Of a stretch of 64,000 bases of DNA, positions 54,270 through 55,357 are shown in pieces (the stretch's first letter is position 1; each line of letters begins with the position of its first letter). The stretch comes from Anaerolineales bacterium (GTDB taxonomy: Bacteria > Chloroflexota > Anaerolineae > Anaerolineales > E44-bin32). The notes beneath the pieces were generated by a model. The model was not told the origin of the DNA. It searched no databases and was given only the letters and a program-made list of their open reading frames with translations. Made by a program: the position numbers and the translations under genes. The DNA lies in NCBI GenBank assembly GCA_034430895.1, contig DAOUDW010000087.1:4408-68407 (forward strand). Reading direction: 5' to 3'.

Positions 54270-54295
54270 CAAATCGCTATCTAGGCAGTACGTAG

Positions 54296-54326
54296 GTTGG
54301 GTTGAGGAACGAAACCCAACACTTTT
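54296..54326 (+). terminator. intrinsic terminator of the giant gene
   Basis: GTTGGGTT-gaggaacga-AACCCAAC followed by ACTTTTT, 27 nt after the stop codon. Confidence 0.65.
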
Positions 54327-54516
54327 TCCCCCTATCTTCCCCCCGCAGGGGAATGTGGGGGTTCCCCCACACCCCGGCAAAGCGGCCCATGAACTGGATT
54401 TCAAAAACGTAGGGAGCATGGGCCACTGAATCATCCGTTCTGTTGACTCAAAGCTCACTTTGATGCATTTGTCCTAAACCACATCAATGTCACTTAAAGG
54501 ATAATTTGGCCGACAT

Positions 54517-54688
54517 GTAAAGCATAACATGGCCGAATTATAGGGGAATCTCAGCTCGAAAGCCTACCGATATAAAGCATAATGTGGCCGAAAGTGCAAA
54601 AATAAAGCATAAGCTGGCCGTGAGTACTGTAAGCTTACTTTTTATATCGACCGATTCTACACGGACGATGTTTTTCCACCCTACACGG
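54517..54688 (+). repeat. iteron-containing repeat unit U1
   Basis: Three AAAGCATAAnnTGGCCG iterons (54517, 54572, 54602) followed by ACGGACGATGTTTTTCCACCCTACACGG. About 85 percent identical to 62135-62306. Confidence 0.75.
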
Positions 54689-54695
54689 GCCTAGT

Positions 54696-54879
54696 ACCAT
54701 ATTATTGCCGTTTGTACAGCGAATTGCCCCGCAATGTATCTCCGAGAAAAGCTCGATTTGTAGCATATTATTGCCGATTGTGAAATTTTGCACCATATCA
54801 TTGCCATTTGTGAAGACTTAACATAATTGAGGGGGTCTTTGTATTTGATCCATCCGGACGAGGTTTTCCCCCCTACAAG
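54696..54879 (+). repeat. diverged tandem repeat unit U2
   Basis: Three CATATTATTGCCG(A/T)TTGT iterons (54696, 54762, 54792), with spacing similar to U1, followed by CCGGACGAGGTTTTCCCCCCTACAAG. Confidence 0.55.
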
Positions 54880-54942
54880 TTTTTACCCACTACAAGTTTT
54901 CACCCCCACATGATGTTTTTCACTCTGCCTGGCGAATTTTCT

Positions 54943-54966
54943 AGAACGGATGTACATTTTCGGCCA
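54943..54966 (+). repeat. interspersed repeat, GAACGGATGTACATTTTCGGCCA type (contains an inverted TGGCCGA iteron core)
   Basis: Identical over 24 nt to 57641-57664 and similar to 12806-12831. Confidence 0.65.
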
Positions 54967-55189
54967 GCACACTCCAACAAACTCGCTCGGCTAATCGTAG
55001 AAAAAGGATGGAAGGGGGTAAGTATGAAGGTAATCGAGTTGATCTAATTTCGGTTGTAACGAGAAGACTATACCCGCAGTAAATTCCGGTCCCGCCTCAG
55101 TCAGATCTGGTAGATACGTCAAGTCTTTTCACAACGCATATTATCATAACCATCATGGAATTTCAGCCTGCAGTATAGAATGACATCAC

Positions 55190-55215
55190 ACAGACGAGGT
55201 TTTTCCCCCCTACAG
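55190..55215 (+). repeat. interspersed repeat copy
   Basis: cagacgaggtttttcccccctacagg. Confidence 0.6.
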
Positions 55216-55357
55216 GTTGTTCGGGATTACCAATTTCCTTATGAGTGGTGCAAATTGTGGGGGCAGGTTAATTTATTACTGTTAATTTAAATGTGCTATA
55301 CCTGAATATTATATTAATCCACTCCGAGATTCCAATTAAATTCCTACATTATTAGTC

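Follow-up and report, generated by a model that had tools for sequence, protein, structure and literature searches.

A Rhs toxin gene without the usual lipoprotein neighbour of its tip family, at the edge of a mobile-element island in an Anaerolineales genome

The Rhs gene, its tip and the interval behind it

The window analysed here is a stretch of 64,000 nucleotides from an Anaerolineales bacterium, positions 4408-68407 of contig C87 of a metagenome-assembled genome (MAG), and the subject is the interval at 54270-55357 that follows a giant Rhs/YD gene, where a polymorphic toxin would usually have its immunity gene. Beside homologous tips in other genomes this place is taken by a conserved PD40 lipoprotein gene; here it is taken by a terminator and the edge of an island of mobile-element pieces, and the partner gene was probably lost or never arrived. 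The source genome (G000) comprises 116 contigs and 3.7 Mb, with a GC content of 0.52, 93% completeness and 3.2% contamination; C-numbers stand for its contigs, and G- and L-numbers for other genomes and fetched loci, respectively.

The Rhs/YD protein has 4825 aa and is encoded by one open reading frame (ORF) on the plus strand (39792-54269). It contains YD repeats, and its core, whose end resembles the Rhs ends of 11 related genomes, terminates with ...FDPTGH at residue 4527; a tip of 293 aa follows (53388-54269, plus strand). The GC content is ∼0.61 in the Rhs core, it falls to ∼0.37-0.42 in the tip, and it is ∼0.40 throughout the interval and the island downstream. The locus also has insertion sequences (IS) and, downstream, an orphan fragment of a tip.

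As for the tip, it belongs to a family for which an exhaustive phmmer search with E<1e-3 gave 143 cluster representatives, and the end of a Rhs core stands before nearly every one of them. The family shows little or no variation at Cys86 (in NLCGQ), at His225 (in GHWVV) and in the block NWVRIxNPF, N249 and N255 are also invariant, and the two catalytic residues and the block are intact in the present protein. The AlphaFold2 (AF2) model of the tip, calculated with an alignment of the locus translations, had a pLDDT of 76.6 and a pTM of 0.80; this alignment was needed, the pLDDT from the single sequence being 31. With this model, the top PDB matches in Foldseek were staphopain (2e-4), the papain-like toxin/immunity pair 9l5u (5e-4), the C39 domain of PCAT1 (7e-4) and CdiA-CT 8ssm, with target-normalised TM-scores of 0.57-0.66. 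On the basis of the family alignment and of the modelled fold, the tip is predicted to be an intact papain-like cysteine peptidase, and its nearest class in the literature is Tox-PLC39. At the level of sequence, it had no match in Pfam (E≤0.1), in NCBIfam (E≤0.01) or among the PDB sequences (phmmer and profile), and a word-indexed homologue search gave no match either; a scan of genome contigs with a pattern from the single tip returned no relatives, and a scan based on a six-sequence alignment found them. By a six-frame profile search, the tip is single-copy in the genome, and it is unrelated to those of the orthologous Rhs genes of the same genus.

Regarding the coding content of the interval, an earlier note on this DNA had claimed that no immunity ORF follows the tip and that the plus strand has no ORF longer than about 10 codons. 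The first claim is upheld: the mechanical ORF list has no plus-strand ORF of at least 60 aa in 54270-55357. The second is wrong, since the same list holds five plus-strand ORFs of 36-45 codons (54302-54412, 54584-54694, 54705-54821, 54910-55047 and 55180-55290), together with minus-strand ORFs of 78, 53, 49 and 43 codons. Repeats that recur across the genome overlap, at least partly, all five plus-strand ORFs and all the minus-strand ones except that of 43 codons, and Pfam had no match for the three ORFs scanned (45 aa on the plus strand, 78 and 53 aa on the minus strand). BLAST against the whole genome indicated that most of 54285-55224 recurs elsewhere, often a few hundred bases from contig ends; all the named repeats of the interval are genome-wide families, and none is peculiar to the Rhs locus. 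The interval holds no credible gene, and it codes for nothing of use to the toxin.

The first element behind the Rhs gene, named HP (54285-54326, plus strand), begins 16 nt past the stop codon and has the form of a terminator, GGTTGGGTTG..loop..AACCCAACAC then TTTTT, with a fold of -15.1 kcal/mol. Its hairpin (54294-54326) has a stem of 10 bp, a loop of 9 nt and then CTTTTT, which confirms the terminator-like structure noted previously; a consensus terminator scan passed over it because of the 9-nt loop. The HP family (GTAGGTTGGGTTGAGG..ACGAAACCCAACA) has ∼10 copies in the genome with 84-100% identity, 6/10 no more than 150 nt from where a listed ORF ends and several at gene ends or between convergent genes, and it is a general REP-like terminator element, not specific to the toxin. 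The copies follow the form GTAGGTTGGGTTGAGG(N3-6)CGAAACCCAACA, some with ACTCCGCTCAGGATGA directly before. HP might have been the terminator of a partner gene since lost; this idea was rejected, given that the same REP-like element occurs at many places, both at the ends of unrelated genes and in intergenic DNA. Next comes R2 (54354-54471, plus strand), a GC-rich non-coding repeat with copies in C90 (two), C43 (three) and C51 at 72-82% identity; the minus-strand ORF of 78 aa, without a Pfam match, overlaps it. R2 was rejected as a gene fragment, its sole blastx match being a spurious ORF within another R2 copy.

These data also bear on the proposal, contained in the earlier note, that the region encodes RNA. 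The interval is dense in repeats and partly structured, and short mechanical ORFs are present, so that a working RNA, or an immunity peptide of very small size, could be imagined; the structure is mild, however, and confined to the hairpin and R2 (fold z = -1.6). Rfam returned no match at E≤1 over 53500-58500, and on both strands the folds of the two iterated units of the interval, U1 and U2, were no better than those of dinucleotide shuffles (z -0.74, +1.19, +0.27 and +0.55). A consensus promoter scan found 13 sites versus 10.6 expected, which is the chance level; the same sequences recur in unrelated loci, and the ORFs have neither a Pfam match, for the three scanned, nor a homologue beside related tips. 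An RNA is unsupported by these results, and an RNA or peptide product of the interval is hardly credible.

The neighbour of the tip in other genomes

The search beside homologous tips in other genomes, which the earlier note had recommended, revealed a conserved partner. It covered 32 homologous tip loci, three from species genomes (Anaerolineales, Chloroflexia and Chloroflexota) and 29 from metagenome contigs. Directly 3' of the tip, and on the same strand, an ORF with a signal peptide and a lipobox-type Cys occurs in 31/32 loci (28 non-redundant), with 3/3 from genomes and 28/29 from metagenomes; its start lies between -79 and +124 nt from the tip stop, with one at +314. At the single exceptional locus, the tip is followed by a short ORF that resembles, by eye, a fragment of an IS3-type transposase. 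WSPDG-type repeats, taken as PD40 β-propeller motifs, occur in 27/32, and in the four partners without them the contig stops within the first 103 aa; PD40 exceeded the Pfam cut-off in 8/10 partners tested, and the partner at L009 matched the TolB propeller at 1e-65. The partners are ∼340-470 aa long, and for this tip family the premise that the immunity gene should be "small" is wrong. The papain-like Rhs tip and the PD40 propeller lipoprotein make up a tightly linked pair across Chloroflexota metagenomes (L009-L011, L025-L053); a literature search turned up no description of this pairing.

In relatives, the Rhs tips of other types have other neighbours, namely lipoproteins of 217-248 aa for zincin-like tips, or small unrelated ORFs, and none of them matches the profile of the PD40 partner. 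The partner behaves like an immunity protein because the neighbour changes with the type of the tip and not with the Rhs carrier, and from this pattern the PD40 lipoprotein is most likely the immunity protein of the family. Since the partner is a lipoprotein, the peptidase may act outside the cytoplasm, and the propeller would then block it at the cell surface as an extracytoplasmic immunity protein.

A different view is that the tip needs no immunity in this genome, either because its target is absent from the producer, as in the non-self option of the earlier note, or because the PD40 neighbour is an accessory for delivery or maturation. Zhang et al. 2012 (PMC3482391) listed Tox-PLC39 for Chloroflexi, in RHS proteins, without an immunity family, and the intact Rhs ORF and catalytic residues are compatible with a tolerated toxin. 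However, the partner is tightly linked to the tip, or overlaps it, in nearly all the homologous loci, and this near-universal presence disfavours the lack of a need for immunity; the type of the partner tracks that of the tip and not the carrier, which is immunity-like, and an accessory that the toxin required would, by being absent, leave it useless. On balance, a tip that does without immunity is quite improbable.

Behind the Rhs gene of the source genome, no trace of the partner was recovered. With three partner proteins as queries, tblastn detected neither a remnant nor a pseudogene, and blastx of the interval against all the ORFs of the genome and all the partners detected no remnant; by the same two methods, no conserved short ORF with homologues beside the same tip elsewhere was found in the interval. 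The genome does encode at least 40 PD40-type proteins, several of which are beside U modules (C2, C45, C74, C91, C48 and C76). None of them adjoins the tip, and the best match to the L009 partner is only ∼29% identical; for these two reasons, and because the tip is single-copy, no paralogue can be nominated as the protector. As a separate observation, C85:1-1752 contains the end of an IS21-type helper gene (by eye), a Cys-rich ORF of 174 aa and, after a gap of 67 nt, a PD40 lipoprotein of 356 aa, and the last two may be another orphan toxin-partner pair.

The sister genome G005 (L024, C11:10000-19587, 3-3024) has the orthologous giant Rhs gene with a different tip, which is zincin-like and carries the motif HELAH. 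An overlapping lipoprotein ORF of 248-266 aa comes after this tip, and a U2 module and the same IS as in the window appear only after that ORF; the pair of zincin-like tip and lipoprotein recurs in L002 (G030). Because G005 also has U2 and the same IS behind the orthologous Rhs gene, the region downstream of the Rhs locus is one in which these elements land throughout the genus, and G005 displays the normal order of toxin, partner and then elements.

The island: U and P modules, IS481-like ends and cargo

From 54488 onwards, the interval is composed of repeat modules. U1 (54488-54632, plus strand) has a sharp TGTCACTTAAAGG terminus followed by four iterated sites (cores at 54499, 54522, 54577 and 54607), as defined by an alignment of 16 copies. 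In this alignment, the complete U copies start exactly at TGT(G/C)ACTTAA, with unrelated left flanks, and the complete module has four iterated sites of 14-20 nt, with the core (G/C)(G/C)ATAnnnT(G/T)GCC(G/A). U2 (54687-54829, plus strand), aligned with nine other U2 copies, is truncated at its 5' end: the first ∼25 nt are gone, together with the TGTGACTTAACCCATAATCTTGCC terminus (TGT) and the first site, and three sites are left (cores at 54697, 54763 and 54793). The U units had previously been described as iterated, which is correct, and as having three sites each, which is not, complete copies holding four. Genome-wide, the core sites are clustered and number 153 versus ∼43 expected. By BLAST, U1 of the window is 93% identical to C45:4639-4779, and U2 matches C75, C44, C2, C91, C74 and others; the repeat copies are short and mostly diverged, with exact stretches of 29-34 nt and U modules 72-93% identical.

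The U modules are accompanied by copies of a second repeat of the GGACGAGGTTTTTCCCCCCTACA type, also written GGACGAGG..CTACA; the iterated units and these repeats (GGACGAGGTTTTTCC..CTACA), both recorded in the earlier note, are real. Repeat analysis assigned to this group IRa (54654-54688, plus strand), a copy of the GGACGAKGTTTTTCCMCCCTACA repeat that is the usual follower of a U module, and IRb (54845-54916, plus strand), which comprises three degenerate tandem copies of the GGACGAKGTTTTTCCMCCCTACA repeat with a period of 17 nt. A third U module, U3 (62137-62304, plus strand), is of the U1 type, is 84% identical to 54518-54685, and is joined to the left half of an end module that is palindromic.

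This end module, termed P or P', has one direct site and a palindromic pair, and it ends with ...ACA. Counted by hand, the U start and the reverse-complemented P end are identical at 22/25 positions for type 1 (TGTCACTTAAAGGATAATTTGGCCG vs TGTCACCTAAAGCATAAGTTGGCCG) and at 18/25 for type 2 (TGTGACTTAACCCATAATCTTGCCG vs TGTTTCTTGTAGCATAATTTTGCCG). P and U abut, with a spacing of 5-7 bp, in C45, C2, C74, C44 and in the sister genome G005, and the space from a U to the next P is empty or holds one or two genes, which mostly encode lipoproteins. Twice in C2 and twice in G005, a U or P module is immediately preceded by the IS481-like element. As for their distribution, U modules were present in 5/5 genomes of the same genus that were searched, with 2-10 matches in each, and in 0/20 genomes of other genera; among genomes of the genus, the number of matches varies from 2 to 23.

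Judging from anatomy and distribution only, the U/P units would be non-autonomous DDE-type transposable units, because their TGT...ACA ends form imperfect inverted repeats, their subterminal sites are arrayed, their cargo varies and they are confined to the genus; the iterated sites of the U modules look like putative transposase-binding sites. U/P elements are an undescribed, genus-restricted set, and the interval itself is ordinary mobile-element debris. If they are transposons, the element that starts at 54488 reaches ∼62.15 kb, where the left arm of P' is fused to the next U1 (U3), and it follows that the interval consists of the 3' flank of the Rhs gene (54270-54487) and of the left edge of a composite island of 7.7 kb. 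The contig stops within an IS 4.3 kb past U3, which is the right boundary of the island. The U/P end modules, many copies of which are found where contigs of the MAG end, mark rearrangement-prone regions.

Two other identities of the U modules were rejected. They were considered as Tn7/Mu-type ends with their own transposase, and no such gene was found in the genome: Mu-transpos_C had no match, which is a weak test since the control genomes had none either, and the rve matches were only five, none flanked by U/P ends. An iteron-type replication origin does not fit with the irregular spacing (23, 55-66 and 30 nt), with the occurrence at more than 20 chromosomal loci, and with the absence of an adjacent rep gene.

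Further observations concern the genes next to U1 modules. A secreted Ig-like protein of ∼980 aa paired with a PD40 lipoprotein of 384-397 aa, and then a reverse U1, occurs twice in G000 (C45:448-4571 and C2:863-4962). The stretch fetched from G002 (L020, C43) displays only the PD40 lipoprotein and then a reverse U1 module, and G005 has a large protein related to the Ig-like member of the pair, with a different C-terminus rich in glycine zippers and no PD40 gene.

Behind IRb, the plus-strand feature at 54942-54971 is a solo terminal inverted repeat of an IS481-like element (TAGAACGGATGTACATTTTCGGCCAGCACA), the reverse complement of the left end of the full copies. The earlier note had interpreted it as a duplicated gene start: the identity over 25 nt between 54942-54966 and 57640-57664 is confirmed, and its meaning is different, being the terminal inverted repeat of an IS whose 30-nt end has ∼17 copies in the genome. 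The second solo end of this type (57640-57669, plus strand), which truncates the 5' end of a DUF4145 ORF, explains the duplicated 25-mer; neither end in the window has a transposase, and the ATG inside is fortuitous. The full IS, of ∼1.47 kb, is found at C2:5094-6568 and in C108; it is truncated in C90, and a further copy is in C106. Its terminal repeats are perfect over 15 bp (TGTGCTGGCCGAAAA...TTTTCGGCCAGCACA), and its transposase is an rve-type protein of 400 aa that matches Pfam rve_3 and NCBIfam IS481 (3.8e-28, with 98.8 bits, below the cut-off of 224). By eye, the flanks of the full copies have no matching direct repeats, and these copies are nested in other repeats. The IS ends recur fused to a conserved module of ∼140 nt (IR'-IR''-GS) and also beside U modules.

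The rest of the interval begins with a stretch free of detectable repeat or coding similarity (54972-55121; no blastn or blastx match), in which a GGAAGGGGG motif is followed by a mini-ORF of seven codons. The subsequent plus-strand segment (55122-55224), recognised by repeat analysis and BLAST, contains the X repeat (55122-55164) and IRc (55183-55224), which is another copy of the GGACGAKGTTTTTCCMCCCTACA repeat, and 55225-55357 is the AT-rich 3' flank of a patatin-like phospholipase gene on the minus strand, as determined with the ORF list and Pfam. The genes beyond are, according to Pfam, the patatin-like gene itself (55358-57364, minus strand), the 5'-truncated DUF4145 ORF and a methyltransferase. 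The DUF4145 ORF (57640-58007) starts inside the solo IS end, and its Pfam match begins at profile position 11, as in a gene truncated at its 5' end. IRc is the left arm of an inverted pair of 29 nt (55188-55216 and 57530-57558) that brackets the patatin gene; the same pair, "empty", forms a tight hairpin at C2:6717-6800 and also in C5, and the stretch 57526-57669 shares 89% identity with C2:6751-6892. From this, the patatin gene resembles cargo that entered a repeat module.

Probable partner loss, its rivals and known systems

The reading preferred here, with a probability of roughly 60%, is that the partner of the toxin was lost from its site beside the Rhs gene, or never reached it, and that the interval is a terminator plus the edge of a mobile-element island. 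Its first part (54270-54487) would be the Rhs gene's own REP hairpin with a small repeat, and the second would be the left edge of the 7.7-kb AT-rich island, built of nested or tandem pieces of genus-specific mobile elements: the U1 end from its TGT (54488), the decapitated U2, the GGACGAGG..CTACA repeats and the solo IS481-like end. The most probable cause of the loss or of the failed arrival would be a deletion or rearrangement by the mobile elements that now abut the Rhs gene, and the producer might be protected by one of its PD40 paralogues, by silence of the gene, or by nothing at all. Among the three options of the earlier note, displacement or loss of the immunity gene with the island is the best, considering that the partner is present in 31/32 loci elsewhere and absent here, and that the edge of the island adjoins the gene. 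The repeat identities, the lack of a credible ORF or pseudogene in the interval, the modelled fold of the tip and the conserved neighbour are observed; the immunity role of the neighbour, the binding of a transposase at the iterated sites and a loss caused by the elements are all points that we infer.

Several considerations weigh against the loss of the partner as told here. The PD40 partner could be an accessory protein rather than an antidote. The genome is a metagenome-assembled bin, and the contig ends shortly after the island, within an IS, so that a displaced partner could lie beyond. In the MAG, which is 93% complete, the search for a multi-site transposase like those of Mu, Tn7 or Tn402 was negative, the mobility of the modules being deduced from their anatomy and distribution, and inspection of the flanks by eye revealed no target-site duplications for any element. 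Finally, at least eight loci have a U2 module 30-190 nt in front of a lipoprotein gene of the same orientation (C74:5669-5811, C44:4393-4521, C91:13354-13471, C48:573-605, C76:1977-2006, C70:38598-38677, C75:62523-62609 and C6:20095-20150); the signal peptides of these lipoproteins are alike (MKI(K/N)..LL..C), and five of the eight have clear PD40 propellers. The lipoprotein genes could be cargo, or U2 could be a promoter or recombination module that they share.

This last arrangement is an argument for considering the U/P modules as recombination or regulatory sites of lipoprotein genes, in which case the copies adjacent to the Rhs gene would mark a currently empty site of expression or exchange for immunity-type cassettes. 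The palindromic pair with direct repeats is also reminiscent of the core and accessory sites of recombinases, and the lack of both target-site duplications and a dedicated transposase agrees with it. Conversely, no recombinase gene is associated with the modules, and their 5'-TGT...ACA-3' ends, with terminal inverted repeats identical at 18-22 of 25 positions, are typical of DDE transposons; U copies occur in many unrelated contexts and at contig ends, IS481-like copies repeatedly flank the modules, and in the homologous loci elsewhere no module of this kind separates tip from partner, the gaps being -79 to +124 nt. A recombination or regulatory role of the modules, with an empty cassette site, is unlikely on this evidence.

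As for the quality of the sequence, the junction might be an artefact of assembly or binning, or a variant of a minority strain, with the dominant genome keeping the partner. The fragmentation, completeness and contamination of the MAG would allow it, as would an interval made of repeats that end many contigs and a contig that stops in an IS. In our judgement, however, the repeats are too short or too diverged to mislead a k-mer assembler over 1.1 kb; the low GC content is unbroken from the tip through the interval to the island, and the distance of 16 nt between the stop codon and HP leaves no room for a collapsed gene. Such an artefact or variant is very improbable.

If the partner was indeed lost or never arrived, an intact toxin gene without it is a natural test of survival after the loss of immunity, and of paralogous or mobile substitutes. 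A broader proposal joins two parts, that tip and PD40 lipoprotein are an undescribed extracytoplasmic toxin-immunity pair, and that the U/P elements are cargo transposons shuttling such lipoprotein genes; taken together they are unlikely and are put forward only tentatively. Were both true, an immunity paralogue that had been mobilised or orphaned would protect against the toxin in trans, and the U modules right behind the Rhs stop would mark a site of cassette exchange or excision. The iteron-rich non-coding kilobase at this Rhs locus is explained as the wreckage of transposons, and not as a new RNA or a hidden immunity gene.

Regarding known mobile elements, the IS481-like element and its solo ends compare with the IS481 family and with its solo ends and miniature derivatives (miniature inverted-repeat transposable elements, MITE, or mobile insertion cassettes): shared are the single rve-type transposase, the TGT...ACA termini, the perfect 15-bp terminal inverted repeats and the many solo ends without transposase in the genome. 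They differ in that no target duplications were seen here, and in that the ends are fused to the ∼140-nt module and lie beside U modules. Transposons with arrays of transposase-binding sites in their ends are those of the Mu, Tn7, Tn552 and Tn402/Tn5053 types. The U modules resemble them in the TGT terminus, in the three or four sites of ∼20 bp within 150 bp of the end, and in the matching inverted end; unlike them, they have no MuA-, TnsB- or TniA-like transposase that could be found here, the second end of U/P is a palindrome with one direct site, and as a rule they carry one lipoprotein gene or no cargo at all.

With respect to peptidases and their inhibitors, staphopain is encoded beside a dedicated protein inhibitor, and staphostatin is a small cytoplasmic β-barrel. 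The staphopain-staphostatin system (PDB 1pxv, 1y4h) gave the best structural matches to the tip; the candidate inhibitor of the tip family is instead a putatively secreted propeller lipoprotein, absent in this genome. The PDB entry 9l5u is a Cpe1-type toxin/immunity pair, and PMC12136450 appears to be its paper. According to that article, the papain-like toxin Cpe1 acts on cytoplasmic topoisomerases (PMC12136450). The CdiA-CT of C. rodentium (PDB 8ssm) also has a papain-like fold that Foldseek matched to the tip. Tox-PLC39 and the other papain-like toxins (PMC3482391) have in common with the tip the papain-like fold, the Cys/His centre and the position at the C-terminus of a Chloroflexota Rhs protein. 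The differences are that the tip has no sequence match in Pfam, NCBIfam or the PDB, and that the partner of its family is a PD40 propeller lipoprotein of 340-470 aa; a recurrent family of Chloroflexota Rhs tips gains in this way a predicted papain-like fold and a strongly conserved candidate immunity protein of an unusual kind.

In conclusion, the locus as a whole compares with the Rhs/WapA-type toxin loci (Zhang et al. 2012, PMC3482391), with which it shares the giant Sec-type YD carrier, the DPxG-type end of the core, the variable C-terminal tip of low GC content, the orphan tip fragment downstream and the insertion sequences. What sets it apart is the usual position of the immunity gene, which here holds a terminator and the ends of mobile elements.

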